DNA of 64,000 bases from Planctomycetota bacterium (GTDB lineage Bacteria; Planctomycetota; SZUA-567; H5-PLA8): NCBI GenBank assembly GCA_038227875.1, contig JBBRPR010000038.1:19309-83308 (forward strand). Reading direction: 5' to 3'. The translations under genes were made by a program, and so were the position numbers. Positions within the stretch are counted from its first letter, which is position 1. Every line of letters starts with the position of its first letter. The notes beneath the pieces were generated by a model, which worked only from the letters and a program-made list of their open reading frames with translations, was not told the DNA's origin and searched no databases. Positions 7,930 through 63,861 of this stretch are shown in pieces.

Positions 7930-9111
7930 TTATTTTCGCTTCAGCACAAACCGAGCGTTGGCGTTCAGCACGTTCCGGCTGACTTTGTAGAGCACCTTCG
8001 GCTGATCGATGTACACCTGGTTGCTCAGCGTCAGACTGATCGGCAGCGACGCCATCGCGCCGGCCTTGGGCGTGGCCACGTTGGTCAGGCCGCTGGCCGC
8101 GAGCGCCGCCGCAAAGTCGCCGCGGAGGAAGAAGTTGATCTTCACCGGCCCGCCGAAGAACTGTTTCCGGATCAGTTTGCGGACGAGCGAGAAGCGATTG
8201 GTGCCGGACTTGCCACGTCCGTTCTTATCCATCGTGAATGTCGCCGTCACATTCCCCACAGCGACCTGCACCGTTTGTTTCAGCGGATTGAATCCCGCCG
8301 GCAGCGTCACCAGGCCGAAGACCTGAATTCGGTCGCGGCCCTTGATCTTGAAGTTTAAATTGATGCTCGCGCGCGTGACCGTCCACGGCAGCACCGTCGG
8401 CGGAATCACTGCCGCGCCCTGCGAAACCTTGACCAGCATCGGCACCAGCAACACGCCTCCGAAGCCATCGGTGACCGTGATCGTTGCCAGGTACGAATTG
8501 GCCGTGGGATAGTTATGCTGAACCGTCGCCCCGCTGCCAAACGTCCCATCGCCAAAATCCCACGAATAGTTCAGCGTCGCCCCGACCGGGCTCGTCGCCA
8601 GACACGTGAAGTTGACCATGTCCGCCGTCGTCGGCGCCGCCGGAGAAAAACTCGGATTGATCGTAAACACCGGCGGAATATCGCCGTAGTTGAAGGCCAG
8701 GCCGGAGCCCTTAGGTATCGGCACGTTACCGGGTGTGCGGAACACGTTGTCGAAGAGAGCCACCCGCTTGGCGCCGAAACTGTTCAGCGAACCATCGTAA
8801 AGTATATTGAGCGTGCGAGCGTCGGCCCAGACCAATTGACGCGCGGTCAGGCCGGCAGGCAGCAGGACCTGCTTAATGTCGATCTGCGTGATATTCATGT
8901 CTTCGCTAAAGACGAATTGAATCTGAGGTGTGGCGCTGGTGATTGTCGAACCGTCCGTCGGAAGTGTTGAGATAATGACCGGCGCGTTTCCGGTTCGGTT
9001 CGCGACCGTCGCGCTGATACCGACTCCCAGACCTGAATTCTTGCTTGCTGCCGCAAATACAGACGAAGCTGTTAGAGTTGCCAGCAGGCAAAGAATCCAA
9101 GATCTAAACAT
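7930..9111 (-). CDS. Secreted Ig-like (Big_5-type) + PKD domain protein with shared C-terminal domain
   Basis: Signal peptide; P-x-DG...FSEDMN Ig motif; PKD motif YSWDFGDG...HNY...Y.ATITVTDG; basic C-terminal domain shared with three other proteins in the window. Confidence 0.85.
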   Translation of the reverse strand: MFRSWILCLLATLTASSVFAAASKNSGLGVGISATVANRTGNAPVIISTLPTDGSTITSATPQIQFVFSEDMNITQIDIKQVLLPAGLTARQLVWADARTLNILYDGSLNSFGAKRVALFDNVFRTPGNVPIPKGSGLAFNYGDIPPVFTINPSFSPAAPTTADMVNFTCLATSPVGATLNYSWDFGDGTFGSGATVQHNYPTANSYLATITVTDGFGGVLLVPMLVKVSQGAAVIPPTVLPWTVTRASINLNFKIKGRDRIQVFGLVTLPAGFNPLKQTVQVAVGNVTATFTMDKNGRGKSGTNRFSLVRKLIRKQFFGGPVKINFFLRGDFAAALAASGLTNVATPKAGAMASLPISLTLSNQVYIDQPKVLYKVSRNVLNANARFVLKRK

Positions 9112-9157
9112 AACCAGGCCTTTTTCACAGTTGCATCATCAAGAAGTAGCGCACTTT

Positions 9158-10096
9158 TCACGGCTTTTTGGCCGGCGCAATGTCCGCGAGTGGTTGCAGC
9201 GCGATAATCGATCGCGCCCGCAGAAAATCAGTTACTTTGCCTTTCTCATCGGCGACAAAAACCAGCTCTTCATAGTTCTTGCCGCGCACTGCTGAGGAGG
9301 GCACGTTCACTTTCAACGATAGAGCTTTGGATTCACCCGCTTTCAAGGTGAAGGGCTTGTCCATTTCGATCCATTCGTCTTTTAGCACCGGTGTGCAACC
9401 TTTGCCGTAATAGCGTTCGTGGTGTCCGACTTCCTTTTCCACCTCGCCGATCCGCTTCAACGAGTATGTGTGTTCCTCTTTCGAATTATTCGTGAATTTG
9501 GTCAGCACCGTCCAGAACGTTCCTGGTTGCGTCTCCGGCATTTCCAGTATGGAAGGAATTACCGTCGTTTCGCCAAGCGCTTCTTTCGACATCGGTTCGG
9601 CGAGCGTTTCCAATTGAACTCGTGATGCAACTTGCAAGCCAACAACGCCCGTCGCATTGGCTTTACCAGGGCTGCAGCAGACCACAACCATCCATTTTTG
9701 ATTGTACAATTCTGGTTTGTCGGGAACTTTAACGAACAAGTTCACTTTGCCTTCGGATTTGGCCGGGACTTCCAACTCTTCTTTATCCAGCGAGCACCAA
9801 GCAGCATCAGGAATGTCACGGTATCCCAGTTCCCAAGAACCTAGAACGCCAGAAACCTTCCTCACAGCGATGTTGAAAACCTGCGCCTTGTCCGTACCGT
9901 TGTAGACAATGAATGAGCCTGTACCCGCGAAGACATCGACCTTGTCGGCTCCGGGGCGAATGTTCTCGACCAGAACCATTCCTGGCCCGATGCCAAATCC
10001 GGTTCCACCTTCAGCACCCCACGCTGGCGAGGTCGTAACTAGAACTGCCAGCACGATTACGAAAGAGCGAAATAAGGAAGAAGATGGAATGTGCAT
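9158..10096 (-). CDS. Secreted two-Ig-domain protein, chaperone-like (PapD/DUF916-like)
   Basis: Signal peptide ending SPAWG-A; two repeats of P..l...pG..N.....F/Y...W...l.a.e...V.VP......Y; sits directly downstream of the four paralogous subunits. Family assignment is inference. Confidence 0.7.
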   Translation of the reverse strand: MHIPSSSLFRSFVIVLAVLVTTSPAWGAEGGTGFGIGPGMVLVENIRPGADKVDVFAGTGSFIVYNGTDKAQVFNIAVRKVSGVLGSWELGYRDIPDAAWCSLDKEELEVPAKSEGKVNLFVKVPDKPELYNQKWMVVVCCSPGKANATGVVGLQVASRVQLETLAEPMSKEALGETTVIPSILEMPETQPGTFWTVLTKFTNNSKEEHTYSLKRIGEVEKEVGHHERYYGKGCTPVLKDEWIEMDKPFTLKAGESKALSLKVNVPSSAVRGKNYEELVFVADEKGKVTDFLRARSIIALQPLADIAPAKKP

Positions 10097-10178
10097 GCGT
10101 GTGCCCCTCAGAAAAGAGGACTTCCTCTCAAAAATTTAATTTGGCAAATTCCGGCAAAAACGTCCATGCGAGTATCCC

Positions 10179-11033
10179 TCAGTTAGCCGTTGCCGTCAAT
10201 GTAACGTTGTACTGATTCAGCACTCCCGCGTTTCCGGCCGTCACTGTGGTGGGGTTGTCCACTTCCAACACCAAGGGCATGTCGGTGGCAGTGGTCAAGT
10301 TCACGGTCAGATTCTGAGCGGTAAACAGAGAGGTGGGCGCGACACCGTTCATTCCGCCTTTGATGGCCACGACGTTTGGACCGGCCGCGGCGGCGAGATT
10401 GAAAGGCCCTGCAGTCTTCACAGCAATAGCGCTGATGGTGCAGGCACTGCCTGTGGCCGAGACATTCGAAACGTTGATCGTTTTGTTGTTTTGCGCATCG
10501 TCGCTGCGGTAGATCGTGGCGAGGTCTGTCTGACTAGCCGCCAATAGCGTGCTGTCCTTGACGGTCCACGCATAGTTGGAAACCCGATTGGCGGGCTGGG
10601 TATGATCCACGGACCCATCGTCCGGCGTAGTGCCGTTACCCCACTGAATCTGGGCGCGCTTGGAAACGGTGGTGCTAACGACGACAACCAACTGGTTGTT
10701 GCGGGAGACATACGTGTAGAAATTAGCGGCGGATACCGTGCCATTGACCGTAACCGTCACGGCGCCGGCCGATCCCGCGGGGGTCAAGGCGACATCCAGC
10801 GTGTTGTTGGCCACATTCACTGCGGTCACGGTTGCCGAGGTGGCGCCAAAGAGAACGGTATTGCTGGCAGGTGTTGCATTGATCGCAATACCGGAGGTGA
10901 AAATTCGCACGAGCTGGCCGCCTGTGGCGGGTCCGCTGTTAGGGGAGATCGAGTTGACGGTAGCTGCGAAGGTGTTGCCGAGCGAAGCGAGGAGAAGAAG
11001 CAGCGCAAGTTTGAACGTTCGGGTCATCGTCAT
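10179..11033 (-). CDS. Secreted IPT/TIG + conserved C-terminal pilin-like domain protein (paralog 4)
   Basis: Signal peptide; ISPNSGPATGGQLVRI IPT motif; C-domain KRAQIQWG...VTLTATAN. Confidence 0.88.
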   Translation of the reverse strand: MTMTRTFKLALLLLLASLGNTFAATVNSISPNSGPATGGQLVRIFTSGIAINATPASNTVLFGATSATVTAVNVANNTLDVALTPAGSAGAVTVTVNGTVSAANFYTYVSRNNQLVVVVSTTVSKRAQIQWGNGTTPDDGSVDHTQPANRVSNYAWTVKDSTLLAASQTDLATIYRSDDAQNNKTINVSNVSATGSACTISAIAVKTAGPFNLAAAAGPNVVAIKGGMNGVAPTSLFTAQNLTVNLTTATDMPLVLEVDNPTTVTAGNAGVLNQYNVTLTATAN

Positions 11034-11074
11034 TGAGTCCGCGTTTCAGGAAGTGTTGTCCCAAACAAACAAAG

Positions 11075-11101
11075 GTGGCGCCGTGCAATTCCCGGCGCCA
11101 C
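11075..11101 (-). terminator. Intercistronic hairpin / partial terminator
   Basis: 9-bp stem GTGGCGCCG/CGGCGCCAC followed on the minus strand by CTTTGTTTGTTTG. Confidence 0.55.
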
Positions 11102-11114
11102 ACTCGATCGATTC

Positions 11115-11987
11115 TTAGTTCGCCGTCGCTGTCATCGTCACGTTGTAGGTATTCAGCACGCCGGCGTTACCAGAAGTGACCGTGGTCGGCGTGTCGAATT
11201 CCAGAACCAGCGGCTGATCGGTCGTGGTGAGCAAACTTCCCGTCAATGTCTGAGCGGTGAACAGCGAAGTGAGTGCACCAGCGCCCATTGCTCCTTTGAT
11301 CGCGACAACGTCGGGACCGGCGGTGGCCGCGAGATTGAAGTTACCGGCCGTCTTGGTGGCAATCGCACTGATCGTGCAGGCATTTCCAGTCGACGAAACA
11401 TTGGAGACGTTGATCGTCTTGTTGTTTTGCGCATCGTCGCTGCGGTAGATCGTGCCTAGATCGGTCTGGAGCGAAGCCAGCAGCGTGCTGTCTTTCACCG
11501 TCCAGGCGTAATTGGAGATGCGGTTGGCAGCCAGTGTATGGTCGACAGCACCGTCGTCAACCGTTGTGCCAGTACCCCACTGGATCTGTGCGCGCTTGGC
11601 CACTGTATCGCTGACCACCACGACGAGCGTGTTGTTGCGAGAAACGAACGTATACAACGTATTTGCCACATTGGTGCCATTTGCGTTGGTGACCGTGACG
11701 CTCAGGTTCGCGCCCGCTACGGCTGCCAACGTCGTAAAGTCGCAGGTAGTGGTGGTCGCTGCACTGGCGGGAATGCCACCGGCGGGGAGACCGTTGATTT
11801 TGACCAGGTTGTTCGCCGCGGTGGTATCGAAATTGGTGCCGTAAATTCGAATGAGCTGCCCGCCGGCAATTGGACCGCTATTCGGCGAAACAGCCGTGAC
11901 GGTGGGGACGGCAGCGAGAGCCTGGCTGGACATGCCAACGGCGGCCACGACGGCTACAGCTAGAATGAGTGAGTTCAACTTTTTCAT
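11115..11987 (-). CDS. Secreted IPT/TIG + conserved C-terminal pilin-like domain protein (paralog 3)
   Basis: GGAG RBS; signal peptide MKKLNSLILAVAVVAAVGMSSQALA; IPT motif VSPNSGPIAGG; ends NVTMTATAN. Confidence 0.9.
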   Translation of the reverse strand: MKKLNSLILAVAVVAAVGMSSQALAAVPTVTAVSPNSGPIAGGQLIRIYGTNFDTTAANNLVKINGLPAGGIPASAATTTTCDFTTLAAVAGANLSVTVTNANGTNVANTLYTFVSRNNTLVVVVSDTVAKRAQIQWGTGTTVDDGAVDHTLAANRISNYAWTVKDSTLLASLQTDLGTIYRSDDAQNNKTINVSNVSSTGNACTISAIATKTAGNFNLAATAGPDVVAIKGAMGAGALTSLFTAQTLTGSLLTTTDQPLVLEFDTPTTVTSGNAGVLNTYNVTMTATAN

Positions 11988-12031
11988 GTCCGCTTCTCCA
12001 AGGTGTCTACTATTTCAAGTCTTGAAAGAAC

Positions 12032-12060
12032 CGCCCGCAGTCGTTACACGACTGCGGGCG
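12032..12060 (-). terminator. Intercistronic hairpin
   Basis: Perfect 13-bp stem CGCCCGCAGTCGT/ACGACTGCGGGCG with a 3-nt loop just after the paralog 2 stop; weak U-tract. Confidence 0.55.
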
Positions 12061-12076
12061 TTGGCACCGGTCTAGG

Positions 12077-12955
12077 TTAGTTGCCCGTGGCAGTCAAGGT
12101 CACGGTGACGACGGCGGTCTGGCCCTGATTTCCATTTGTAATGGTGGTCGGGGAATCAAATTCCAGGACGAGAGGCTGGTCTGAACCAACCGTTAGATTG
12201 TTCGTCAATGTTTTTGCAGTAAACAGGTTCTTCATTGCAGTGTTGTTCATTTCGCCGCTGACTGAAATGACGTCAGGAGCAGCCGCAGCAGCCAACGTGT
12301 AAGGTGCGCCACCCGTCGCAATTGCACTGATGGTGCAGCTCGAACCGGCAATCGAAGAGACGTTCGAAACGTTGATCGTCTTGCCATTGTTGAAATCGTC
12401 GCTGCGGTAGTTGGTTGCCAAGTCGATCTGTTGCTTGCCAGCGATTACGCCAATCGAGTTGTCTTTTACCGTCCAAGCGTAGTTGGTGATGTAATCGGCA
12501 GCCACCGTGTGATCGACGGAGGCATCGTCCACCGTCGTTCCTGTGCCCCACTGGATCTGCGCACGATTGGCCACTGTCGCGCTGATCTGCACAACCAGCT
12601 TGTTGTTACGAGAAACAAATTTGTAATTGACTGCGCCGCCACTCTGAGTGCTGGCGCCTGAAGAATTGGTATTTACAACAACCAAGCCTGAACCAGTCGT
12701 GGTCGTTGCCAGGGTTGTGCAGGTAAGCTGCGTCGCGGTTGCAGCCGTGACCGTGACAGCCACGCCGTTCAATGTCACGACGTTATTGGCTGCCGTCGTG
12801 TCGAATCCCGAGCCATAGATACGAACAAACTGACCGCCACCGGACGGGCCGCTGGTAGGCGAAATCGCGGTCACATCGGATACTGCTGCGAACGCGCTAC
12901 CGGATACCACCATCGCCGCCAAAACCATCACCACCTTCAGTAAGTTCGTCTTCAT
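12077..12955 (-). CDS. Secreted IPT/TIG + conserved C-terminal pilin-like domain protein (paralog 2)
   Basis: Start moved to ATG 12955 (MKTNLLK, AAGGAG RBS upstream); IPT motif ISPTSGPSGGG; ends VTLTATGN. Confidence 0.9.
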   Translation of the reverse strand: MKTNLLKVVMVLAAMVVSGSAFAAVSDVTAISPTSGPSGGGQFVRIYGSGFDTTAANNVVTLNGVAVTVTAATATQLTCTTLATTTTGSGLVVVNTNSSGASTQSGGAVNYKFVSRNNKLVVQISATVANRAQIQWGTGTTVDDASVDHTVAADYITNYAWTVKDNSIGVIAGKQQIDLATNYRSDDFNNGKTINVSNVSSIAGSSCTISAIATGGAPYTLAAAAAPDVISVSGEMNNTAMKNLFTAKTLTNNLTVGSDQPLVLEFDSPTTITNGNQGQTAVVTVTLTATGN

Positions 12956-13078
12956 CCCCGCGTCTCCTTTGCAAAAGCTCCTAGGTTGTAAAGTTTTCAC
13001 AGTATCCGAGTGCCGGTGGTTCCAATTCTGTTTCAAGTTTGACTTCCCTCCCCCACGCCGTGCGCGGTGCCCGTTTGG

Positions 13079-13921
13079 TTAGTTCGCTGTAGACACCAGC
13101 GTCACTGTTGAAGTCTGTGCCACTCCTGCCGCCGCCGCCGTAATGCTCGTTGGCGTCGCCATCTCCAGTACCAGCGCTTGGTCCGTACCCTTGACCAGTG
13201 CGTTGGTCAGCACTGTTGGCGCGGCGCTCAGTGCCACCGGAGCCGCGCCGCCCAGGGACGCGCGCAGACGAAAGGTGTTTGCTCCTGCGGCGGCGCCAAT
13301 GGTCCAGGACGCGGTGTTGGTGGCGATGGCATTGATCGTATTCGTGGCGTTGGTGGGCGAGATATTCGAGAGGTTGATGACCTTGTTATTCAACGCATCG
13401 TTGCTTTGGTAGACCGTGTTTACGTCCGCGTTCACGCCCAGCGAACTGTCTTTTACAATCCACATATAGTTGGTGATGCGGTTGGCACCGACAGTGTGGT
13501 CGACACCCGCGTCGTCGACGCTTGTACCGTTGCCCCACTGGATGTCGGAGCGCTTCGGGATCGTCAGCACCACGGACACCTGAACATTAACGTTTCCGTT
13601 CGTGTATGTGTAGCCATTCGCCAGCGTCGAGGTTCCGATTCCCGCTCCGTTGGTCACCGAGATCGTGACGTTGCCGACGGTGTGAGCGGGAACTACAGCG
13701 CTGATTGTAGCGTCGTCGATCACTGTAAAAGTCGCAGGCGAGATGCCGAAGGTGACGCCAGTTGCCGCACCATTGTTAAAGTTTGAACCAGAGATCGTCA
13801 CCGTCGTGCCGCCATTGATCGTGCCCGAATTCGGAACCACGCCAGAGATCGTCGGCACAGCGGCCCCGAATGCAGCGCGGGTCATGAACGCGAAGATGAA
13901 GATCAAGGTGCCGGTTTTCAC
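13079..13921 (-). CDS. Secreted IPT/TIG + conserved C-terminal pilin-like domain protein (paralog 1, most divergent)
   Basis: Probable GTG start at 13921 (AAGGA upstream); canonical IPT PTISGVVPNSGTINGGTTVTISGSNF; ends VTLVSTAN. Confidence 0.88.
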   Translation of the reverse strand: MKTGTLIFIFAFMTRAAFGAAVPTISGVVPNSGTINGGTTVTISGSNFNNGAATGVTFGISPATFTVIDDATISAVVPAHTVGNVTISVTNGAGIGTSTLANGYTYTNGNVNVQVSVVLTIPKRSDIQWGNGTSVDDAGVDHTVGANRITNYMWIVKDSSLGVNADVNTVYQSNDALNNKVINLSNISPTNATNTINAIATNTASWTIGAAAGANTFRLRASLGGAAPVALSAAPTVLTNALVKGTDQALVLEMATPTSITAAAAGVAQTSTVTLVSTAN

Positions 13922-14020
13922 GTGTGACTTTTCCTTCTCGATTGCACTGGTGCTGAGCTCGCGATGCAAATTGAATCAATTTGCGACTCAACTGTTTTGT
14001 TCTTCGGACGACGTCTGTAT

Positions 14021-34731: not shown

Positions 34732-37134
34732 TCAGTTCTCAACAATCGTGAATTTATGATTCAACGCGTTGTAGTGAACAGATTGATAAAACACCGTATG
34801 GTAGAACAAAACATAGACAGGAAAATTGGCGTCGCTTTTTTCATTGAACCCATTTTGTTCCAGCACCGTCTTGTAGCTGCCCTGCAAGGTCATGGAGAAC
34901 GACGCGTTCTCAGTGCCCACTTTCGATTTGCGATGACTGATGCGCACGCGCAGATCTTTATTCAGCGTCGAACCCTGCCCCGATTTTCCCAGCAGCATCT
35001 TTTCCACTACGCCCGATGCCAGAAAAATCACCTGCTCCTTGTCGACGGTGTAGCCCGCATCCATCGGCAGCGCGCCCGTCAGGGTGATCTTGTCTCCGTT
35101 TTTGCCCAACTTTATGTCGAGATGTTTGAGCGTAAACAAGCGCGTCCCCGAAGAGGTCGCGTTTCCTGCGAACGGCGTCGACTTCGGATCGAACGGATTC
35201 GAGCCGAGAATTTTCTCAAAGCTGTTCGGGACTCCGTCGCCGTCTGCATCGCCGTCAGACGGCAAATCCTGGACGACGAACGTCAGGAATTGCTGTGTCG
35301 TCCCCACGGCATTGGTGGCCGTGATGAGCACGCCGTACGTGCCAGCCGTGGCGAACTGGCCGTTCAGAATATACCCGAGCGAAAATGTAACGCCCGACGG
35401 CAGCGCACCCACCGAAAAGTAGATCGGCTGCGAGCCACTCGCGAAAATCGACAGCGAAAACGGCTGGCCCACGAACAGCGACACGCTACTGGGATTGGTG
35501 AAGGTCGGCGGAAGCCCCGGCGCGATCGTGATAATCAAGGTCTGGTTGGTCGTGCCGCCGGCGTTGGTGGCGGAGAGAATGACCGTGTACGTACCGGCCA
35601 CCGTCGGAGTTCCCACGATGGAAGAACCGCCGTTGATCAATCCCGGCGGCACACCAAACGCGTTGAGCACGATCGGATTGGTGCCGGTCGCCGTGATGAT
35701 GTACGTGAACGGAATTCCCACGGTACCGCTGGCCGTCAGCGGGCTGGTGATGACCGGCTTGGGCGTAAGCCCGGAGGAGATGTTGACGCTGCACGCGTAA
35801 ACGTCACAACCGGAAAGCGCGCCGTCAGGGTTGTCACCGGTGCTGTTGGAGTTGTCCGACCAGCACGGATAAAACACGCCGGCGTAAAACGACAGTGCCG
35901 TGTAGTCTCCAAAGTCGTTGGGATCGGCGGCATCGGCGCTGTTGGAGACGCCGGTGGAAACGCGAAAGTTCGGCACGAACGTGGCTCCGCCGTCAGTGCT
36001 GAAGGTCGCGTAAAATTCAACGTCGTCGTTGGGATTGCCGTTGGTGTCGCCCGGGCCGCTTCCATTATCGTTGCGGCAGTCGTACCACGAAAAGGCGATA
36101 TTTCCCGTCGTCGGGTCCAGCGCAATGCGCGGCATGAACTGACTGTTCGCCGTCGCGTCGTCGTTCACGCGCGCCCGCGGCGACCAGCTCGCGCCGCCAT
36201 TGTCGGAATAGCGCAGGTAGATATCCAGATCCGTGTTGCTGGGCGCCGGCGCATCGGTATAGACCATGTACACGCGCCCGGCGTGCGCTCCGCTGGTGCG
36301 ATCCCATGCCAGTCCCACTTCGGCATCGACGCTGCGTGTCATCTGCGGCGGGATGAAATTGAACCCGCCGATACTCGTTGTGGTGACGAAGGTTTGTGGG
36401 CCAAAGCCGCCGGGCCCCAGTCCGTCGGCGTCCACGTGAATAAAAATATTCGACGGCCCGACTCCGCCACTGTTGTCCTGGTAGGCGATCATCACCTGCC
36501 CCGCCGGCCCGATCGCAATATCGCCAAAATTACAGCCGTTTGAACCCGGCGCGGTTTGCAGCGGGCTGAAACCCTGAACCTGCCCCAGACCCGTGATGCG
36601 CGCGCCCGTGGCTACAAGGTTGTTCGCGGCGTCCTGAAAAAAGAACCAGACACTTTGCGACCCCGGCGTATCGCCAGGACCCGTGACCAGCGTGGGCTGG
36701 TCACCGGCCGGAAACGAAGCCAGCTTCTGAAAGGTCTTGCCCCCATCGGTGCTGAGCGCCATGACCGCAATCGTGGTCGTTGAATCGAGGTAGCCGAAAA
36801 AACAATTTCCGAACGAATCGAAGCCAATAGTCGGATCGCAGCACGCCGGGATCAAGCTATCGTTACCGTCTGCAATCACAGACGTGCTCCAGGTAACACC
36901 GGCATCCATACTATAGGCCTGAAGAATCCCGGTGGCCAAATCGTTGGCGTTGGCCGCCATCACCAGGTTATTGGGATTGGTGGGATTGATCGCGATGGCT
37001 TCTTCACACTGATGCAGCGGCCGCCGCAGGATGTTGACGTTCGCTCCGACGGTGGCCGCGACCGCGACGTCTGCGCAGAGACCGCACACCGCCAGCGCCA
37101 GAACTCCGACGCAACGAACCGCAAATCGACTCAC
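34732..37134 (-). CDS. Secreted Asp-box (sialidase-like) propeller + putative Ig repeats + DxDxDG motif + shared C-terminal domain
   Basis: GGAGG RBS + GTG 37134; SMDAGVTW, STDGGKTF, SDNGGASW and FGDY motifs; PPGL...GTPT.AGTY Ig repeats; DADGDGVPN. Confidence 0.88.
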   Translation of the reverse strand: MSRFAVRCVGVLALAVCGLCADVAVAATVGANVNILRRPLHQCEEAIAINPTNPNNLVMAANANDLATGILQAYSMDAGVTWSTSVIADGNDSLIPACCDPTIGFDSFGNCFFGYLDSTTTIAVMALSTDGGKTFQKLASFPAGDQPTLVTGPGDTPGSQSVWFFFQDAANNLVATGARITGLGQVQGFSPLQTAPGSNGCNFGDIAIGPAGQVMIAYQDNSGGVGPSNIFIHVDADGLGPGGFGPQTFVTTTSIGGFNFIPPQMTRSVDAEVGLAWDRTSGAHAGRVYMVYTDAPAPSNTDLDIYLRYSDNGGASWSPRARVNDDATANSQFMPRIALDPTTGNIAFSWYDCRNDNGSGPGDTNGNPNDDVEFYATFSTDGGATFVPNFRVSTGVSNSADAADPNDFGDYTALSFYAGVFYPCWSDNSNSTGDNPDGALSGCDVYACSVNISSGLTPKPVITSPLTASGTVGIPFTYIITATGTNPIVLNAFGVPPGLINGGSSIVGTPTVAGTYTVILSATNAGGTTNQTLIITIAPGLPPTFTNPSSVSLFVGQPFSLSIFASGSQPIYFSVGALPSGVTFSLGYILNGQFATAGTYGVLITATNAVGTTQQFLTFVVQDLPSDGDADGDGVPNSFEKILGSNPFDPKSTPFAGNATSSGTRLFTLKHLDIKLGKNGDKITLTGALPMDAGYTVDKEQVIFLASGVVEKMLLGKSGQGSTLNKDLRVRISHRKSKVGTENASFSMTLQGSYKTVLEQNGFNEKSDANFPVYVLFYHTVFYQSVHYNALNHKFTIVEN

Positions 37135-37397
37135 AGATTTTCCTCCGAATGAAGCGAGCATTATTTTTCGTGATACAAATATATGCTTTTCTATGATCGT
37201 AATGTCTTGTAATATTACTTTCAACTCTATTGTTTATATTAGTTATTTATATGTTTTACGCGCTGTCTTTCTGGGGATGGGGTCCTTGGCACGGGTTGGA
37301 ACCAATAGATTTTTAGGGCCCGACAGCCCGAACCATCGAACCGCGTCGACTCCCACGCGCTACCGCTATTCCCAAATGTAAATCGGCCAACCTACCG

Positions 37398-39130: not shown

Positions 39131-39132
39131 GG

Positions 39133-40173
39133 TCACGGAGTCCTGAACGCAGGCACCAACACAATCCGAAAACCGATGGAGCCGTAGCGGATGCGTGGAA
39201 CGTACCAGCAGCGGTAAGCCGACCGACAGTACATGGGAGGGCAGAGCCAAGAACCGCCGCGCAACTCACGGATGGCACCATGATCCGGGCCTTGCGGATT
39301 TTCTGCTGGAGATTTGGAGTAGTAGTCTTCACCGTACCAGTCTTGACACCATTGCCACACGTTGCCATGCATGTCGTACAATCCAAATTTATTGGGATCA
39401 TTCTGCCCAACAGGATAAGTTGTGCTCTTGCTGTTCGCGGAGTACCACGCCACGCGATCCAAATCGGAATCCAAGTCGCCGGAATAGAATTCCGTTGTAG
39501 TTCCCGCACGGCACGCGTACTCCCATTCCGCTTCGGTAGGCAATCGCACGCCGTCTTTTGTTTGCTCGGTTACTTTTTTGCAGAACGCCCGCGCATCGTC
39601 CCAGGATACTTGCTCAACGGGGTTATCCTTGCCTATGAAATTACTAGGATTCGTTCCGATCACCGCTTGGTACTGCTCCTGCGTCACGTCGTACTTTCCC
39701 ATATAAAACGGCTGAGTCAGCGTCACCGCATGCGCGGGATGTTCGTTGGGAAAATTGTCTGGATGTTTCAACGCTTCGTTCCAGCGCACGCCGCCCCAGA
39801 CGCCAATGGCCGCTACGAAGGTCATCACCAGCATCAACCCCATGGAGAACTGAGGCCGCTTGTGATTACGCCGGGCGCGGATCAACCAGACCGCCACCAC
39901 GAGAAGAAGTATGCCCCCGCTGATCCCTGTCATCGATTGCCCAACTACAGGTTTTTCGTGCTCCGGCGTCCCCATGACAAACTTCCCAGCCGGGATCAGC
40001 ACCAGTTCAAGCTTCACGCCGTTGCCGAGCTCCAGCGACTTCGCCGGCGGAAGGTTGACGCGTTGGGCGTAGTCGGCGACGGACTCGTGATTATCCCAGA
40101 GCGGGAAGGCTGGCGTGGCCTCAGCGGCCGCCAGCGAACTCGCGAACAAGAAGAGCAGCATCAACAAGCGCAT
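39133..40173 (-). CDS. FGE-sulfatase/C-type-lectin-fold protein with TM hairpin; putative DGR target 2
   Basis: Start at ATG 40173 (signal peptide); same motifs; 24 nt at the 3' end are identical to target 1. Confidence 0.9.
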   Translation of the reverse strand: MRLLMLLFLFASSLAAAEATPAFPLWDNHESVADYAQRVNLPPAKSLELGNGVKLELVLIPAGKFVMGTPEHEKPVVGQSMTGISGGILLLVVAVWLIRARRNHKRPQFSMGLMLVMTFVAAIGVWGGVRWNEALKHPDNFPNEHPAHAVTLTQPFYMGKYDVTQEQYQAVIGTNPSNFIGKDNPVEQVSWDDARAFCKKVTEQTKDGVRLPTEAEWEYACRAGTTTEFYSGDLDSDLDRVAWYSANSKSTTYPVGQNDPNKFGLYDMHGNVWQWCQDWYGEDYYSKSPAENPQGPDHGAIRELRGGSWLCPPMYCRSAYRCWYVPRIRYGSIGFRIVLVPAFRTP

Positions 40174-40299
40174 AGTTGAAGCGTAGTAAATTTGGAGTGC
40201 GCATGCCATACGGGATCGGTCGCGAGCGCGTTGCCCTGATTCAATTCGGTCGCATCGCCCCGGGAAATGAAAATGCCCCCGCCATTACAATCGGTAAAA

Positions 40300-41340
40300 C
40301 TATCGAGCCCCGAACGCGGGCACCAACCTAACCCGCATTCCAAAGAGGTAGTGGCGTTGAACCGGATCGTGTCTCACGCGGCGCGCCGATCGGGAGTCCA
40401 CGGGATTGAGGTTCCAGGAGCCGCCGCGCAATACACGGTAGGCTCCTTCCGCAGGGCCTTGTGGATTCTCATTCGGCAAGTTCGCATAATTTTCTTCCCA
40501 CAGATCCTGACACCATTGCCAGATGTTGCCATGCATATCGTACAACCCGAAATTGTTGGGTTCCTTCTGCCCCACGGGATGCGGGGTGCGCTTGCTGTTC
40601 GCGGCGTACCACGCCACGCGATCCAAATCAGATTCCACATCGCCGGAATAGTATTCAGTCCTCGTTCCCGCGCGGCACGCATACTCCCATTCCGCTTCGG
40701 TGGGCAGACCCACACTCGAATTCGTTTGCTCAGTTACCTTTTTGCAGAACGCCTGAGCATCATCCCACGACACGTTCTCAACAGGTTTGTCCGTGCCCTT
40801 AAAATTGCTGGGATTCGTTCCGATCACCGTTTGGTACTGCTCCTGCGTCACAGCGTACTTCCCCAGATAAAACGGTTGGGTCAGCGTCACCGGACGCGCC
40901 GGATGCTCGGCGGAAAAGTAGTATTGATGTTTCAACGCTTCGTTCCAACGCACCCCGCCCCAGACACCAACCGCCGCCACAAAGGTCATCACCAGCATAA
41001 ACCCCATCGAGAACTGAGGCCGCTTGCGGTGACGCCAAGCGCGGACCAACCACACCGCCACAACGAGTAGAAGTAAGCCCCCGCTAATCCCCGTCATCGT
41101 TTGCCCGACCACAGCCTTTTCAGGCTCGGGCGTCCCCATCACAAACTTCCCCGCCGGAATCAGCACCAGCTCGAGCTTCACGCCGTTGCCGAGGTCGAGC
41201 GTTTTCGTGGGCGGGAGATTTACTTTCTTGGCGTAGTCGGCCACGGACTCCACCCCGTCCCAAAGCGGATAGGCTGGCGCAGCTTCAGACGCGGCCAGCG
41301 ATCCGGCCAGCACGATGACGATGAGCGGCAACGGGCGCAT
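40300..41340 (-). CDS. FGE-sulfatase/C-type-lectin-fold protein with TM hairpin; paralog 3 (more drifted 3' end)
   Basis: Signal peptide; same motifs; ends VPAFGAR; TAGTTTTACCG at the stop, as in target 1. Confidence 0.9.
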   Translation of the reverse strand: MRPLPLIVIVLAGSLAASEAAPAYPLWDGVESVADYAKKVNLPPTKTLDLGNGVKLELVLIPAGKFVMGTPEPEKAVVGQTMTGISGGLLLLVVAVWLVRAWRHRKRPQFSMGFMLVMTFVAAVGVWGGVRWNEALKHQYYFSAEHPARPVTLTQPFYLGKYAVTQEQYQTVIGTNPSNFKGTDKPVENVSWDDAQAFCKKVTEQTNSSVGLPTEAEWEYACRAGTRTEYYSGDVESDLDRVAWYAANSKRTPHPVGQKEPNNFGLYDMHGNIWQWCQDLWEENYANLPNENPQGPAEGAYRVLRGGSWNLNPVDSRSARRVRHDPVQRHYLFGMRVRLVPAFGAR

Positions 41341-54963: not shown

Positions 54964-56553
54964 ATGTTTAAGCCAGCCCACCTGACCTCGAAACACCTCG
55001 TCTCCGCTCCACGCGGATTGATCGCGGCTGCGATGACCGTCGCGCTCTCGGTCTTCAGCGTCAACGTCTCGCTCCGCGCGGCGGACGCGGGCAACCGGGT
55101 CATCAACGGCACCAATGTGCCGACCTCACAGTATCCGACCGTGGGCGAAGTCGGTGACTCGACCGACGCCACTTTCTTTGGCTGCACGGGCACGCTGATC
55201 TCGCCGACGCATGTGCTGACGGCCGGACATTGCCTGACCAACACGAAAGGCGCGCTGACGGTCGGCCAGACCGGCGGCCGCTTCCGCTTGAACGGCGTGA
55301 TCTACAACAGCGTTCACATCTTCGTGCATCCGTCCTGGAAAGGCGGCAACAACGGCGACGCGGAAGGCGAATTCGATGCGATCGTGATGGAGCTCGACAA
55401 GCCGGTGCCGAACGTGACGCCCTCGCCGCTCTACCGCCAGGTTCCCACGGTCGGACAACTGCTGACGATCGTCGGCTACGGCGAACAAGGCACAGGAACG
55501 AAAGGCAGCGACGGCACGATTCCGGCCTCGGGCACCGTCAATTTCGGCACAACGACGCTGGACATCGTGACGCCCACCTACCTGAAGTGGAGTTTCGAAA
55601 ACAAGCAGCCGGTGGAGAGCAACACCGCGCCGGGAGATTCCGGCGGCCCGCAGTTCATCACCGTCAACGGCGTGCTGACGGTCGCCAGCATCACCAACGG
55701 TGGCAGTCTTGATTCGGCCGGTTACGGTGACGTCAGCTACAACACACGCGTCGATGCGATTGCCGCGTGGATCGACCAGGTCAGCAACGGCGCGACCAGC
55801 GGCAACGCGGGCTCGGGTGGATCCGGTGGAACGGGCGGCGTCTCGATCGCCTCCGCGGCCAGCGCATCACCGTCCAATCCGGCCGCGAAGGTTTCCGTGG
55901 CGTTCAGCGTCTCGGGCGCCGATGCCAACGGCGACGCGCTGACCTACGCCTGGGACTTCGGCGACGGCGCGCAGGGCACCGGTGCGAACGTCAATCATGC
56001 CTACGCTGCCGATGGGGATTACACCGCAACGGTAACGGTCACCGATGGCAAGGGCGGTTCGGCATCGAGCTCGGTTAACGTCACCGTGGGCAACGGCGGC
56101 GGAAATGGCGGCAATGGCGCGGACATCCCGGTCAGCGCTCAGAAGTGCAAATTCAAGCTCAACTTCCGCGTGAGCGGCCGCGACACGCTGGACCTGACTT
56201 TCAGCAATGCCGCGTTCCGCTACTCCGATCGCCAGACGTTCTCGTCCTCCGTCGACGGCCTCGCCGCTTCCGTCTCCATCGGCGACACGTCGCTGGACGA
56301 CCTGACCTTCTCGCGCTCCGGCATGGGCACCGGCAACGGCCGCCTGCGCTGGGATTCCCGCAATGGCCTCATCCGCTACCAGCTCCGCAACGCCGACCTC
56401 GCCGATCTGCTGGATGGCTATGGCGCCAGTAACGACGACATCGACGCCTCGGTCACGGTCCCTCTGGCGCTGGTGATCGACGGCCAGACGTACACGTCGA
56501 GCTACACGTTCTCCTACCGCGGCAAGGCGGACATCTCGGGACAGGGGAAGTAG
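54964..56553 (+). CDS. Secreted trypsin-like (S1) serine protease + PKD + shared C-terminal domain
   Basis: RVING activation site, LTAGHC, D, GDSGGP; YAWDFGDG PKD motif. Confidence 0.93.
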   Translation: MFKPAHLTSKHLVSAPRGLIAAAMTVALSVFSVNVSLRAADAGNRVINGTNVPTSQYPTVGEVGDSTDATFFGCTGTLISPTHVLTAGHCLTNTKGALTVGQTGGRFRLNGVIYNSVHIFVHPSWKGGNNGDAEGEFDAIVMELDKPVPNVTPSPLYRQVPTVGQLLTIVGYGEQGTGTKGSDGTIPASGTVNFGTTTLDIVTPTYLKWSFENKQPVESNTAPGDSGGPQFITVNGVLTVASITNGGSLDSAGYGDVSYNTRVDAIAAWIDQVSNGATSGNAGSGGSGGTGGVSIASAASASPSNPAAKVSVAFSVSGADANGDALTYAWDFGDGAQGTGANVNHAYAADGDYTATVTVTDGKGGSASSSVNVTVGNGGGNGGNGADIPVSAQKCKFKLNFRVSGRDTLDLTFSNAAFRYSDRQTFSSSVDGLAASVSIGDTSLDDLTFSRSGMGTGNGRLRWDSRNGLIRYQLRNADLADLLDGYGASNDDIDASVTVPLALVIDGQTYTSSYTFSYRGKADISGQGK

Positions 56554-56572: not shown

Positions 56573-56605
56573 TGGTGGCGCCTCGGTTAGGCGCCACCAT
56601 TTTTT
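56573..56605 (+). terminator. Rho-independent terminator
   Basis: TGGTGGCGCCT-CGGTT-AGGCGCCACCA-TTTTTT. Confidence 0.85.
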
Positions 56606-59004
56606 CATACGGTGAGCTTGTAAATTCCCGTCTCCGTGCCGAGCAGCAAGCCGCCGGAGACTTCTGCGTACGCGTTCACTCGGATTGCTTCTTCGAGAAT
56701 TGAGAACTGACCATCGCGCCATGTTCCAAAACCGAAGTCGGTCGAAACGTAAATGCTGTCGGGCTCGGATACGCGGACGTACGGATAGTAGAAGCGTCCG
56801 GCACAGAGCAGAGCCCACGTGCGCCCACCATCGACGGTCTGCCAGAGTCCGCCCAGATTCGCCGCGATTGCCCGCTTCGGGTCGAGCGGATGTGCGCAGA
56901 TTTGACGCACGATGCCTTCCGGTGGCGTGGCCGCCGGTACGAACTGCGCTTCACCCGTTTTCTCATCGGAGGCCAGATAGTAGATCGTCTTGTAGTCGCT
57001 GGCGTACACCACTTTTGAATCGGCGGGGCTCATCGCCAGGGTCCAGACCCAGTTCGGCACACCCTTGATCGCCTTCCACGACATGCCGCCATCGTCGCTG
57101 ACCTGAACGCCGGGATGGCTGCCCAGGAAACGACCCGGGCTGCGCGGATCGGCGATGATCGACCAGAACTCCGGGCCGTTCTTCGACTGCTGGAAACTCA
57201 AGCCGCCGTCCGCGCTGCGGAAGTGGGCGCCAGCCAGGTTGCTGACGATGCAGCTGCGCCCGCTGGCGTCGAGCGCCACCGAACAATGCGTCCAGTCGGC
57301 ACAGGCACTGATGCCGCCGGCCTGAGACCAGGTCATCCCGGCGTCGCGCGAGTGATACACGCGAGCGTCACTGCGAGCGACGACATGCCGGGAATCGGAT
57401 GGATCCACCGACAATCCCACCACGCTGGAGTGCCGTTGCAGATTGTCATGGGCAGCGGCGAAGGTCAGCCCGGCATCGGTCGAGCGATACAGGCCATCGG
57501 CCGTCCCCAGCAGCACCAGGCCCGCCGTCGCGGGACTGACATACATGGCGACAATTTGTCGCGCGTAACTATCCAGCACGCTGTCGGCGACGGGATTCCA
57601 CGTGCGGCCTTCGTTGCTCGTCACGGTCAAGCCGGTCAGGCGGTCATAGGCGTAGAAACGGTTCGGCTGAACGGGATCGAACGCAAGTTGATCGATGTAA
57701 CTCTTGCCGACACGGCCGAGGTCTTTCCACGTCGCACCCGCGTCTTCGGACAGATACAGATGCTGGAACGCGACGATCACGCGGGATCGGTTGCGCGGAT
57801 CGACCGCCACCGCCATGGGGTATTCCAGACCCTTGGGCAGTTCCTGGGCCGTCCATGTCTGGCCGTCGTCCGTGCTGCTCAGAATGGACTTCTCGGTCAA
57901 GAGCGTAAAGTGGCCTTTACTCGGATCCTCATGAAGGATGTCTTTGATGTAGGCATCGTGAAGCAAGCTCACCTTTTTTGTGCGGAGGTTGAGCCGGAAT
58001 GCTTTCGGCGCGTATAGGAAAATATAGACGAGCTCCGGATCCTGAACCGAGAAGCAGATCTGCCATTCAAGCTCCTGCCTGCCGATCGGATGGGAGGCGA
58101 CGTCCGACCAGTTGGCTCCGCCGTCCAGGCTCTGCGAGATGACGATGTCGGTGAGTGTGCTCCGGCCAACCAGAAGGTGGTCCGCGTTCACCGGCGAGAC
58201 GCCGATTGTGCTGCAGGCCCGGTAGGGCAGTGGCTTGATGGTCCACGTGGCGCCGGCGTCCCTGGAAAGGTAGAGGCTGTTGGAAACCCCCAGAGCGTAG
58301 AGCCGTTTGGGATCGGCAGACGTTCCGACAATCTGATGGAAACGGATGCTCGGGCCCGCACCCGGCAATCCACCCAGCGCGGTCAATACGGGAGTTGTGG
58401 TGTTTGTGTTCATGGCTTTTATCCCTTTTTGTTTTCGGACTTTTTGTCCAATGTGAATTCGGCCAGCGTCAGTGCTACTGGCTGAGATCCTCAACTCCGC
58501 GAGCGCATTACTGGCTCGTTTGGCGAGTGTGTTCTCAGCACAGCCCGCCAGCTCGGCGGATTCTTTTTCGCTGTAGCCTTTCAGGTACCGCAGCACGACT
58601 GCCTGCTGCTGAATTTCAGAGAGTCCTGCGATCGCGTCGTACACCCACTCCAAGGCGCTCTCCTGCAGCGCGGCCGCGTCGTTTTCCGTGCAGAGTGGTT
58701 CGCTGATTTCCCCTGTTTCGAACGGCCGCGTCCGCTTGCGCAGCATCTGCAAACTCAGGTTTCGGGCCACGCCAAAGAGCCACGGCGCCAGCCGCGAAGT
58801 GTTCTTCAGACCCCCGGCTTTCTGCGCCAGTAGTGCGAAAACTTCCTGACTGGCGTCCTCCGCTTCGTATTGATCGTGGAGAACCTGGCGGCAGACCCGG
58901 AAGACCATTCTGCTGTGCCGCGAGACAATCTCCGCGAAGGCAGCTTGATCCCCCTTTGTTACGAACAGGGACAGCAGTTCATCGTCTGATCTTTCCGGAT
59001 TCAT
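56605..59004 (-). CDS. ECF sigma factor in frame with an Asp-box beta-propeller (possibly two genes; internal ATG at 58413)
   Basis: SDDELL...AEDASQEVF...WLFGVARN...LRYLKGYS sigma regions 2 and 4; many SxDxGxTW repeats downstream. Confidence 0.85.
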   Translation of the reverse strand: MNPERSDDELLSLFVTKGDQAAFAEIVSRHSRMVFRVCRQVLHDQYEAEDASQEVFALLAQKAGGLKNTSRLAPWLFGVARNLSLQMLRKRTRPFETGEISEPLCTENDAAALQESALEWVYDAIAGLSEIQQQAVVLRYLKGYSEKESAELAGCAENTLAKRASNALAELRISASSTDAGRIHIGQKVRKQKGIKAMNTNTTTPVLTALGGLPGAGPSIRFHQIVGTSADPKRLYALGVSNSLYLSRDAGATWTIKPLPYRACSTIGVSPVNADHLLVGRSTLTDIVISQSLDGGANWSDVASHPIGRQELEWQICFSVQDPELVYIFLYAPKAFRLNLRTKKVSLLHDAYIKDILHEDPSKGHFTLLTEKSILSSTDDGQTWTAQELPKGLEYPMAVAVDPRNRSRVIVAFQHLYLSEDAGATWKDLGRVGKSYIDQLAFDPVQPNRFYAYDRLTGLTVTSNEGRTWNPVADSVLDSYARQIVAMYVSPATAGLVLLGTADGLYRSTDAGLTFAAAHDNLQRHSSVVGLSVDPSDSRHVVARSDARVYHSRDAGMTWSQAGGISACADWTHCSVALDASGRSCIVSNLAGAHFRSADGGLSFQQSKNGPEFWSIIADPRSPGRFLGSHPGVQVSDDGGMSWKAIKGVPNWVWTLAMSPADSKVVYASDYKTIYYLASDEKTGEAQFVPAATPPEGIVRQICAHPLDPKRAIAANLGGLWQTVDGGRTWALLCAGRFYYPYVRVSEPDSIYVSTDFGFGTWRDGQFSILEEAIRVNAYAEVSGGLLLGTETGIYKLTV

Positions 59005-60555: not shown

Positions 60556-60623
60556 CATGGCTGGGAATCCTGCCGCTTACTACGCTCGCTCCATCCAATT
60601 CAGCCTATATGAGGGAGAAGAAC

Positions 60624-61091: not shown

Positions 61092-61244
61092 ACGGGCGGG
61101 GGTTTCTAACGGCGGGATTCGGGATTCGACCGCGAGGCGTTGCTGACGCGCTTTAAAACCGTCGAGGGTTACCTTCGTAAAAGCTGGCGCTAGGAGTGTT
61201 GCCTTCTAACCAGCGCGTAAATTTACACACAGGTCCCCTTGCCC

Positions 61245-61279
61245 AAAAAACACGCGCCGCTGAAAGCGACGCGTGTTTT
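61245..61279. terminator. Bidirectional terminator between convergent genes
   Basis: AAAAAACACGCG...CGCGTGTTTT. Confidence 0.75.
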
Positions 61280-61294
61280 CCTCAGTCCTCGCCC

Positions 61295-63861
61295 CTAAGG
61301 CACCTTCGCCCGCCCCGTCTTCGCATGCGCCTGGAAGGTCAGCGGTTGGAGCGCGACGAAACCTTCGCCGCCGAAGAGCACCGTCAGCGGCACGGTGACC
61401 GACGTCTTCTTCGTCGCGGTGCTCACCAGGCCGTAGCCGGCCAGCGAAGTCGAGAACGTTCCCTTCTTCAGCGCCAGGACGAAGCGAAAGACCTTGAACT
61501 TGCGGTCGATGCTGAAGGCGATCGAGCCGACGGCGGTCTTCGCGCGGAGCTTCTGGTCGAGCGTGAAGGCGACCACGTTGCCGCCGACATCCACCGCGAT
61601 GCGCTGGCCCTGGAACGCGATGTTGGTCGGGAACGGCGTCAGCACCTGGAGCGTAATGCTGTCGTGATTGGTCTTTCCGAAGGCCAGCGCGATGTCCAGC
61701 TTCTGGACGTTGAGCTTTAACGGCGCGGCCGGGTCGCCGGGCGGGTGCGAGATGGCCAGGTTCGGATTGGTACCGTAGGCGGTCTCCAGTGTGTCGGAGA
61801 AACCGTCGTTGTCACTGTCCGGCCCGGTGCCGAAGACTCCGGCGTAGACAGTGACGGAGAGCGTGGAACTCACCGCCTGCCCCGCCCCGTTGGTCGCGGT
61901 GACTTTGACGGCGTAAATTCCCGCCGACATGTAGTGATGAACGATCGAGCTGCCCGAGCCAAAGGCGCCGTCGCCAAAATCCCAGAGATACGTCAGGCTC
62001 TGAGCGTTGATCGTGTCGGTGGCCATCGCGGTGAAGGTGACGGCCGCGTACGTGCCGTCGGCGTGCGTGGCAATGGTCGCGGGGTTGGGCGTCGCGAAGG
62101 GCGAGTTGATCGTCGGGTTGGTGATGAAGATGAATTCCGTGGCCAGATTGGACGCGACGTAGCCGTTGGAGCATTGGAAGAGGATCAGATCCAGCCCTGA
62201 CGCGCCGGGCTTGGGCTTGTACGTGAACGCGCCCGTCGTTGGATCGGTGATCGTGGCCGTGCCGAGATTGCCGTTGGTGACAATGCTGAACGTCAGCGCC
62301 AGCGGTGGAGAATTGAGCGAATCGCTGCCGGTCAGCGTGCCGCTGCCCGTGGCGTTGCTGGCGACGGAGATCGACCCGTTGGCCGCGACCGGCGCGCCGG
62401 CGACGACGATGGTCAGGAACTGCGGCGCGGACGTATCGATGCCGCCATTGGCCGTGCCGCCGTTGTCCATCAGCAGCACCTTCAGCACCGCCACGCCGTA
62501 AACATTGGGCGTCGGCGTGAAGCTCAAGTTGCCATTGGTGGTCAACGTTGGCTGCACCGCGAAGAGCGCCGCGTTGGAGTTGCTCGTCAGCGTGAAGGCC
62601 AGCGCCTGGAAGCTCTCGTTGGGCGGACCGGCGAGCACATTCGTGACGACGCCATTGACCGTCACCGCCGGCGAGTTGATGCCGACGATGACGGTCGGCT
62701 TGGCCAGCGTGAACGTCGGCTGCTGATTGACCGGCGCGATCACGATGGTGAAGGTCTGAATCGGCGACGTATCGATGCCGCCCAGCGTCGTGCCGCCGTT
62801 GTCCTGCGCCTGAACGCTGATGACCGCGCTGCCGGTCTGGTTGAGTGCCGGAACGAAGCCGAGATTGGCATTGGAGCTCAAGCCCGTCCGGAAAATCTGC
62901 GGCGCAATGGCAAAGAGCGCCGGGTTGGAGTTGGTGGTGATCGTGAACGTGATGGCCTGGGAGGACTCGAAGGCATTCAGGCCGGGGGAGATGTTGGTAA
63001 CAAAGATGGGATTGAGGTACGGGGCATTTTCAAAGCCCGTGGCGACGTTGGGATTGATCGTGAAGCTGGGTGGCGTGTTCACGGGACCAATGGCGATGTT
63101 AAACGTGTGTTGGACCGACGTGTCCTGACCTCCATTGGCGGTTCCGCCGTTGTCCTGAAGCGTGACTGTAATCGTCGCCAATCCGGCAGCGCCTGTAGCA
63201 GGCGTAAAGGTAAGCGTTCCCGCCGAATCCAGCGCGGGGCCGGAAGCAATTAGGGCAGAATTGGAATTTCCTACGATGTTGAATTGGACGGTCTGCCCGG
63301 ATTCATTGGCGGGACCAGGAGAAATCGCGGTGGCGACGTTTGGAATTGTCGCGGGACCCGAATTCTGAGGGACGGCGACGTTTGGAACTAAAGAAAACGT
63401 CGGCGCCTGATTTCGGAAGTTCACGTTGATCGTGAAGCTTTGGCTCAGAGATGTGTCGACGCCGCCATTCGCTACACCACCGTTGTCTTTAACGAAGGCA
63501 AACAGTGTGGCACTACCGATGGTATTTGTAGCGGGTGTGAAGGTCAGAGTTCCCGCCGCGCTGATCGCGGGCTGAACACTGAAAAGCGCCGTGTTCGAGT
63601 TGGATGTCAGGGTGAAAGCCAGCACTTGACCGGATTCGTTCGGGGGGCCTGCAAGAATGGACGTGGCGAAATTGGGAATGCTCGTCGACCCGGCGTTTTC
63701 AAACACGTTCGAGTTGGTTGACAGGGTGAATGACGGAGCTTGATTTACGAAATTGATTGAGATTGTGAACGTGTGTGAAATGGAAGTATCGATGCCGCCA
63801 TTGGCGGTGCCGCCGTTGTCCTGCAAATTCACAGTAATCGTTGCCGATCCTATTGCATTAA
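61295..63861 (-). pseudogene. 3' part of a large cadherin-like/Ig-repeat adhesin (PKD, DxDxDG, shared C-terminal domain) interrupted by an IS
   Basis: Repeats VNQAPSF...GTLTFTPA...DNGGTANGGxDTS begin mid-repeat with no signal peptide; upstream sequence is an IS end. Confidence 0.85.

Follow-up and report, generated by a model that had tools for sequence, protein, structure and literature searches.

A basic C-terminal domain on putative surface proteins of a planctomycete, including the predicted base of an usher-less pilus

The window analysed here is a stretch of 64,000 nucleotides (G000:C38:19309-83308, contig JBBRPR010000038.1) from the genome of a member of the Planctomycetota (G000, assembly GCA_038227875.1; 9.34 Mb, 176 contigs, 88% complete). 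A first-pass annotation, made from the sequence, had proposed that four unrelated secreted proteins of this window, here called A, B, C and D, end in the same domain of about 140-150 amino acids (aa), a candidate sorting or anchoring signal. The open reading frames (ORFs) and their tails are present as described, and the part that they share measures about 148 aa. The carriers and their domain copies are the following.

7930..9111, minus strand: protein A, 393 aa, with signal peptide, donor-strand-like segment, Big_5, PKD and the C-terminal domain (sequence, domain scan)
7933..8397, minus strand: domain copy on protein A, the predicted pilus base subunit; the copy used for the structural model (alignment, profile, model)
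34732..37224, minus strand: protein B, with Asp-box/BNR propeller, Ig-like stalk, TSP3-like motif and the C-terminal domain (sequence, domain scan)
34735..35148, minus strand: domain copy on protein B (alignment, profile)
54964..56553, plus strand: protein C, with signal peptide, trypsin, PKD and the C-terminal domain (sequence, domain scan)
56119..56550, plus strand: domain copy on protein C (alignment, profile)
61295..63883, minus strand: protein D, with cadherin-like/Big_9 repeats, PKD, TSP3-like motif and the C-terminal domain; towards the contig end the frame lacks its 5' part or is interrupted
61298..61726, minus strand: domain copy on protein D (alignment, profile)

In pairwise local alignments evaluated against 1000 shuffles, five of the six pairs of tails stand out (z 7.2, 7.3, 10.9, 4.6 and 7.1), while the B-C pair alone is not significant (z -0.9). 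A profile built from other copies in the genome, with these four left out, recovers all four tails (E 1.3e-32, 1.2e-15, 1.5e-13 and 6e-28 for A, B, C and D, respectively). The carriers are somewhat less unrelated than had been claimed: A, C and D each have a PKD domain shortly upstream of the tail, and B and D each have a TSP3-like motif. Such elements often precede the domain but are separate from its ~148 aa. The claim that all four are secreted has to be qualified for D, which shows no visible signal peptide. Its frame starts in the middle of a repeat, after an in-frame stop near the contig end, and secretion is therefore deduced for D from its domains only. The final ~110 bases of the contig (window 63884-64000) do not extend the frame of D, as they contain an in-frame stop and unrelated-looking sequence; a broken gene or an assembly edge is a candidate explanation for this interruption.

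The profile of the four tails alone matches dozens of frames in the genome and, when iterated, it collected 105 frames, 98 of them with the domain ending at most 20 aa from the stop, and no reversed-decoy match. A core-only model was adopted after a wider iteration had drifted into the upstream PKD domain, and the final census compared this model with 260-aa chunks of the 6,374 gene calls (best decoy E 0.024). It counts 124 carrier proteins on 67 contigs, with a total of 137,743 aa and a median length of 1,011 aa, including frames of 2,000-6,200 aa with adhesin-type repeats; the number exceeds 105 because hmmsearch on whole frames missed very long carriers. The domain is terminal in 112 carriers, next to last in 11 and internal in one, so that 123 copies are last or next to last. 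The 11 next-to-last copies are followed by a terminal, basic domain for which hhalign gives 64% (E 6.5e-5) in an alignment of 56 columns with the core; it is therefore probably a diverged second copy. Among the best 150 global matches the domain is C-terminal in 148, with clear tandem pairs in 7. Four weaker candidates lie just below threshold and one of them is N-terminal (G000:C12:56306-57841, E 4.6e-4): it directly follows the signal peptide and precedes an Ig-like domain, beyond which comes a region with a resemblance to what we take to be an ice-binding domain.

The domain is combined with very diverse cargo. Copies are 22% identical at the median, and the N-termini of the 114 carriers compared fall into 83 families. 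Our own signal-peptide heuristic was passed by 89 of 98 carriers, against 1695 of 4189 genes overall (a background of 40%), and a possible lipobox was seen in one carrier. At least 71 of 83 PKD-motif proteins and all 19 TSP3-like-motif proteins bear the domain. Three PKD proteins without it (G000:C4:142215-144989, C21:118941-121202 and C1:2699-5494) end in another Lys-rich Ig-like domain, possibly a second basic tail type.

One way to read this pattern is as an export address, that is a folded domain recognised in the periplasm by an outer-membrane machine (a secretin system or an unknown translocon), as type IX secretion system (T9SS) tails are. We consider this reading rather unlikely, even if a good deal speaks for it: the near-absolute terminal position, a conserved Gly/Lys-rich last strand with Lys or Arg as the final residue in 83 of the 124 carriers, the rule of one copy or one tandem pair per protein, and the coverage of most Ig-stalk exoproteins in a genome where nine secretins and no usher were found. 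It is at odds with a giant fibre tip and with pilins that lack the domain, which are described below, with several genomes of other families that have at least 1-4 matches and no common neighbour gene, and with the fact that no T9SS barrel tracks the domain.

The AlphaFold2 model of the A copy (pLDDT 94.5, pTM 0.87) has strands throughout and one 7-residue helix, and the domain is thus confidently predicted to be a beta-sandwich. Foldseek returned no match at E <= 0.001 for this model, and the best VIA-align matches are generic sandwiches (Z up to 6.5), with no T9SS tail among the best 50. In structure the nearest proteins are soluble sandwiches, and a weak resemblance extends to many binding modules. 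When 64 copies were compared with Pfam and NCBIfam at E <= 1, each Pfam family matched at most one copy and each NCBIfam family at most three; no T9SS tail family was matched (among 25 of the 28 Pfam families listed and all 22 of NCBIfam), and neither was any catalogued carbohydrate-binding module (CBM) family in Pfam, NCBIfam or the PDB sequences. The sequence search of PDB with the domain gave no match (best E 0.36). A literature search, beyond the reach of which were subscription journals and bioRxiv supplements, found no paper that describes it.

The copies are strongly basic: their median net charge is +11 (62 of 64 positive) with 9.5% Lys, while the passengers average -3.2 per 150 aa with 1.8% Lys and only 2 of 97 are positive. 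Copies from low-copy loci of other genomes behave in the same way (20 of 21 net positive). Two kinds of known C-terminal signals do not fit these data. An autotransporter or small outer-membrane barrel is at odds with the soluble-sandwich neighbours and with a terminal Phe or Trp in only 4 of the 124 carriers. A sortase, exosortase or rhombosortase tag would combine a motif, a membrane helix and a basic tail, an arrangement that the tails do not show, and the model is a beta-sandwich. The first-pass statement that transmembrane helix, LPxTG and PEP-CTERM are all lacking also holds for the whole set, because motif and hydropathy counts over the 124 tails gave no PEP-CTERM, one LPxTG-like sequence and six tails with a 19-residue hydropathy window above 1.6.

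A basic sandwich that resembles many binding modules weakly (Z up to 6.5) might also be a CBM-like module. Its ligand would then be an external polyanion, such as DNA, humic matter, a mineral or an acidic polysaccharide, and its carriers, enzymes and adhesins, would stay on particles or in the biofilm matrix and not on the cell. The strong positive charge would suit this role, and the tandem pairs found in 7 of the best 150 global matches would suit avidity. We regard it as quite improbable: no CBM family is matched, the 83 unrelated N-terminal families include a protease and a pilus base, and binding modules usually shuffle internally, whereas here only 1 of 124 copies is internal.

Outside the source genome, a single-query search found the domain in 14 of 16 genomes of the same family; within this family G002, G007 and G010 have 0-1 matches, and G000, G001, G008 and G015 have dozens. 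A profile search of the phylum found it in at least 28 of 301 genomes, belonging to this family and to families f28, f40, f60, f65, f85, f89 and f97, and in 0 of 16 genomes of family f18. This search scored the best 13 candidates per genome, so that copy counts are lower bounds; several genomes of other families have at least 1-4 matches each. Worldwide, matches at E <= 0.001 were obtained in 3,001 clusters (50% identity), of which those with a name are mostly Planctomycetota. Neighbours in the ESM Atlas are unnamed clusters, mostly of Planctomycetota as well, with Ca. Binatota commonest in one. Taken together, the domain works like a C-terminal address common to an exoproteome and lies outside every family compared. 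The original interpretation is in this sense partly borne out: position, signal peptides and the lack of a catalogued family support a C-terminal domain for sorting or anchoring that is expanded in this lineage and shared by diverse exported proteins.

The first-pass annotation had further supposed that a dedicated machinery is encoded elsewhere in the genome, by analogy with the T9SS. This could not be demonstrated, since the domain was not tracked by any family of neighbours, lipoproteins or barrels, and the analogy stands for function only, as neither a T9SS tail family nor a PorP barrel was found. The source genome encodes nine secretins and one BamA. PorP/SprF barrels were not found in it or in any of 7 genomes searched in its family; weak matches appear in 6 of the 301 genomes of the phylum, none of them a domain carrier, and five f18 genomes have weak PorP/SprF-like matches. 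For SprA and the PorU-type C25 peptidase there was no match in the source genome (88% complete), though the controls gave no match either. Regulators and one porin family emerged from the 415 neighbours of carriers in this genome, and in 20 loci from low-copy genomes Ser/Thr-kinase-like genes are the only common neighbours.

The porin family (Porin_O_P-like; G000:C13:147392-149014 and paralogues) consists of barrels with an N-terminal coiled-coil-like segment and has expanded family-wide, each of 16 relatives having 3-15 matches. Four of its nine members adjoin carrier genes, two of these being paralogous loci. It was rejected as a dedicated partner: none of the 16 family genomes lacks it, not even those that have 0-1 copies of the domain, and its close orthologues are missing from carriers of other families (0 of 6 in f28). 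The same observations bear on the idea of a periplasmic tether or lattice, in which the domain would bind peptidoglycan or self-associate and many carriers would stay inside the outer membrane. The failure to find a dedicated outer-membrane route, the tandem copies and the four porin genes beside carriers would fit it, but the porin family does not track the domain, and adhesin-type frames of 2,000-6,200 aa, like a giant-tipped fibre and its base, make most sense outside; we hold it to be very unlikely.

Protein A lies in a tight minus-strand run formed by four genes for a TIG domain plus 170 aa, a 312-aa two-domain gene, A itself, a 102-aa ORF and a 3,293-aa repeat protein. This pilus-like operon spans window positions 1-13969 (minus strand), continues to G000:C38:17095 and is conserved in several families of the phylum. 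Its features besides A and its domain copy are listed here.

13079..13969, minus strand: predicted pilin 1 (profile, sequence)
12077..13036, minus strand: predicted pilin 2 (profile, sequence)
11115..11987, minus strand: predicted pilin 3 (profile, sequence)
10179..11033, minus strand: predicted pilin 4, with signal peptide, TIG, donor strand and pilin domain (profile, sequence)
9158..10096, minus strand: predicted pilus chaperone, with signal peptide and two Ig-like parts, without a C-terminal membrane helix (sequence, domain scan)
8995..9048, minus strand: segment similar to a donor strand, residues 22-39 of A, with which the mature protein begins; it is like the strand of predicted pilin 2 (12077-13036), and its binding is a prediction
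7610..7918, minus strand: ORF of 102 aa that separates A from the tip gene and starts like a signal peptide
1..7599, minus strand: predicted tip adhesin, 5' part, of a frame of 3,293 aa (G000:C38:17095-26976), with autotransporter-passenger-type repeats

The predicted tip ends, beyond the window, in a pilin domain without a donor strand: the profile of the four pilins matches the end of the 3,293-aa protein (i-E 8e-7), but not through the N-terminal strand. As judged by sequence only, an acceptor-only tip and a donor-only base are both present in the operon. The predicted chaperone has a weak, below-cut-off match to WxLIP_PGBD (PF06030, E 4.7e-4) and no PDB sequence match; with its gene as marker, the same operon was located in 7 of the 301 genomes of the phylum, and at 19 loci of metagenomes and 10 of genomes, some duplicates included. 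A pilin of a relative was modelled (pLDDT 74.6) with its first ~19 residues outside the sheet, and the top Foldseek rows for it are mostly donor-strand pilins (archaeal bundling pilin, FimG, PapG, CfaB, TasA, Csu), none of them at E <= 0.001. The gene that follows that of the chaperone encodes, directly behind the signal peptide, a copy of the pilin strand. In 12 operons, the N-termini of these bases score 28.9 on average against the pilin strand of their own operon and 20.5 against those of the others (0 of 2000 permutations). Eight pilin and three tip domains gave no WxL match in Pfam at E <= 0.1. The usher family PF00577 has no member in the source genome, while the control matched in E. 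coli, and the literature search mentioned above, with the same reach, found no paper on such a pilus in Planctomycetota. From this arrangement, A looks like the base subunit or terminator of an usher-less donor-strand pilus, with a donor strand first and the cationic domain last.

The pilins lack the cationic domain, and so does the tip, which is the only one of three autotransporter-repeat proteins without it, as expected if it is held through the fibre. Since tip and pilins are presumably outside and yet do not bear the domain, anchoring is a less awkward function for it than that of a pure export tag, and the pilus context leans towards attachment over export. Under an export address, the pilus could still be drawn out by its base, with anchoring following as a second step.

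We then compared what occupies the C-terminus of the base in different operons, using 18 distinct base genes with a visible end among the loci listed. Ten of them end in the cationic domain (G000, G001, G005, G008, G011, L102, L106, L109, L120 and L125) and four in an unrelated tail of ~105 aa (G133, G244, L111 and L113), the hhalign probability between the two being 0.8%. This second tail was found in 15 of 16 genomes of f18, with weaker matches to internal repeats elsewhere; all 20 of its top copies that were retrieved are terminal, and a lipobox ORF of the FGE-sulfatase type comes next in at least 16 of these 20. In f18, tail and FGE-sulfatase-type lipoprotein gene are a candidate one-to-one cargo/lipoprotein display system; the cationic domain has no such per-cargo lipoprotein, a lipobox gene being next in 0 of 122 carriers. 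The interchange of tails in the base slot favours anchoring over a pure export signal.

Some further observations concern these loci and the window. The ~105-aa tail, with its Gly-rich end, sits on large adhesins in the f18 loci L075:14293-18435, L130:988-4854, L131:322-5073 and L132-L151. In G133 an outer-membrane barrel gene (L074:8826-10967), Pom-like and with a long acidic N-terminus, lies between the base and tip genes, and the source genome has no homologue of it. Tandem genes with FGE-sulfatase domains and an internal hydrophobic insert occupy window positions 37991-41340 (minus strand), the genome total of FGE-type matches being ~25, and an extracytoplasmic function (ECF) sigma factor fused to a BNR/Vps10-type propeller (56605-59004, minus strand) is convergent with the gene of protein C.

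The interpretation that we propose, at a rough probability of 0.5, is that the cationic domain keeps its carriers on the outside of the cell by binding, non-covalently, an anionic envelope component common to all of them. The carriers would be exported by Sec through cleavable signal peptides, and the folded cargo would then cross the outer membrane through a route of general use, for which one of the nine secretin systems is the most plausible candidate. There the PKD/Ig stalk would project the catalytic or adhesive head, while the cationic domain would grip a common ligand, for which lipopolysaccharide, capsule or an abundant outer-membrane protein are candidates. In the pilus, A would give its N-terminal strand to the last pilin and moor the fibre through its cationic domain, so that pilins and tip would need no copy of their own.

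Several points weigh against surface binding. A strict C-terminal position is typical of export signals, while non-covalent anchors are often found at either end, and here only the one weak N-terminal candidate (E 4.6e-4) was seen; moreover, two of the 64 copies are not net positive. The comparisons of neighbours, lipoproteins, barrels and porins yielded no ligand or partner. The signal-peptide heuristic is of our own making, with its 40% background. As for the pilus, fold matches of the pilin are individually weak, the best VIA-align match (Z 7.4) is not a pilin and the model is that of a relative's protein; the strand comparison used a cognate pilin picked by eye in operons with several, and other cargo N-termini score up to 36 in it, against 22-50 for the bases. 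Finally, four of the 18 listed bases have neither tail (G301, which ends in PKD, G151, in another Ig-like end, and L103:8845-10911 and L104:4417-6711, which carry a donor-like strand at the extreme C-terminus behind Fn3-like repeats), and therefore the base does not always show an anchor.

A broader proposal, which we put forward tentatively and consider doubtful, is that the domain is the tag of an undescribed export-and-display pathway, apart from the T9SS, sortases and autotransporter barrels. Such a pathway would serve more than 120 proteins (~4% of the genome) and would also moor an usher-less pilus on a cell with an outer membrane, with different families plugging different tags (the domain, or a tail with its own lipoprotein) into the same base. 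Little is known of the means by which planctomycetes bring large enzymes and adhesins to the cell surface. In one family this domain is found on most of the Ig-stalked exoproteome, and it occurs in at least seven others; it could therefore serve as a marker of surface proteins in uncultured genomes and as a bait for the receptor or the export route. In the pilus operon the parts needed to test this are small, as its predicted 393-aa base joins a donor strand to the domain.

Among known systems, the C-terminal domains of the T9SS in Bacteroidota (type A, Por_Secre_tail PF18962/TIGR04183, and type B) come first to mind. There one terminal beta-sandwich is found on many unrelated signal-peptide proteins, usually behind an Ig-like stalk. 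The planctomycete domain is similar in its terminal placement on diverse cargo and differs in its length of ~148 aa, in matching no T9SS tail family and in the PorP/SprF barrel not being found in its family. PEP-CTERM/exosortase, GlyGly-CTERM/rhombosortase and LPxTG/sortase are likewise many-to-one C-terminal tags of patchy distribution, made of a short motif, a membrane helix and a basic tail; the planctomycete domain, in contrast, is folded and soluble and has none of those parts. The BTD/FPm-1 module of Fibrobacter succinogenes is also comparable: it is a lineage-specific basic C-terminal module on exported enzymes, for which a role in transport or outer-membrane binding was proposed (PMC3079729). 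It belongs to another phylum and was reported from 24 genes, against 124 here, and no library family is matched by the planctomycete domain.

For the pilus, the closest parallels lie in two usher-less systems. In the Elr/WxL pilus of Enterococcus faecalis, reported as confined to Bacillota, the base ElrB combines a donor strand with LPxTG and the tip is acceptor only (10.64898/2026.10.17.759780). The planctomycete operon, as predicted, shares with it usher-less pilins, a two-domain chaperone, a tip with a C-terminal acceptor and no donor strand, and a donor-only base that would bear the anchor. It differs in that the host has an outer membrane (BamA), the pilins have no WxL match in Pfam and the base ends in the cationic domain instead of LPxTG, while the counterpart of the Elr DUF916/DUF3324 chaperone has only the sub-threshold PF06030 match and lacks the terminal hydrophobic helix. 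The Pam pilus of Candidate Phyla Radiation (CPR) bacteria offers, as is predicted for the planctomycete operon, chaperone-assisted strand exchange without usher, two-domain pilins and a terminator, PamR, proposed to end and anchor the fibre (PMC13278184). In those cells, described as having no outer membrane, the cytoplasmic membrane is where chaperones and terminator are attached (PMC13278184), whereas in the planctomycete the chaperone seems to be soluble and no membrane helix is present in the base. The operon suggests that donor-strand pili without an usher exist in a phylum whose cells have an outer membrane, beyond the two recent descriptions in Bacillota and CPR bacteria.

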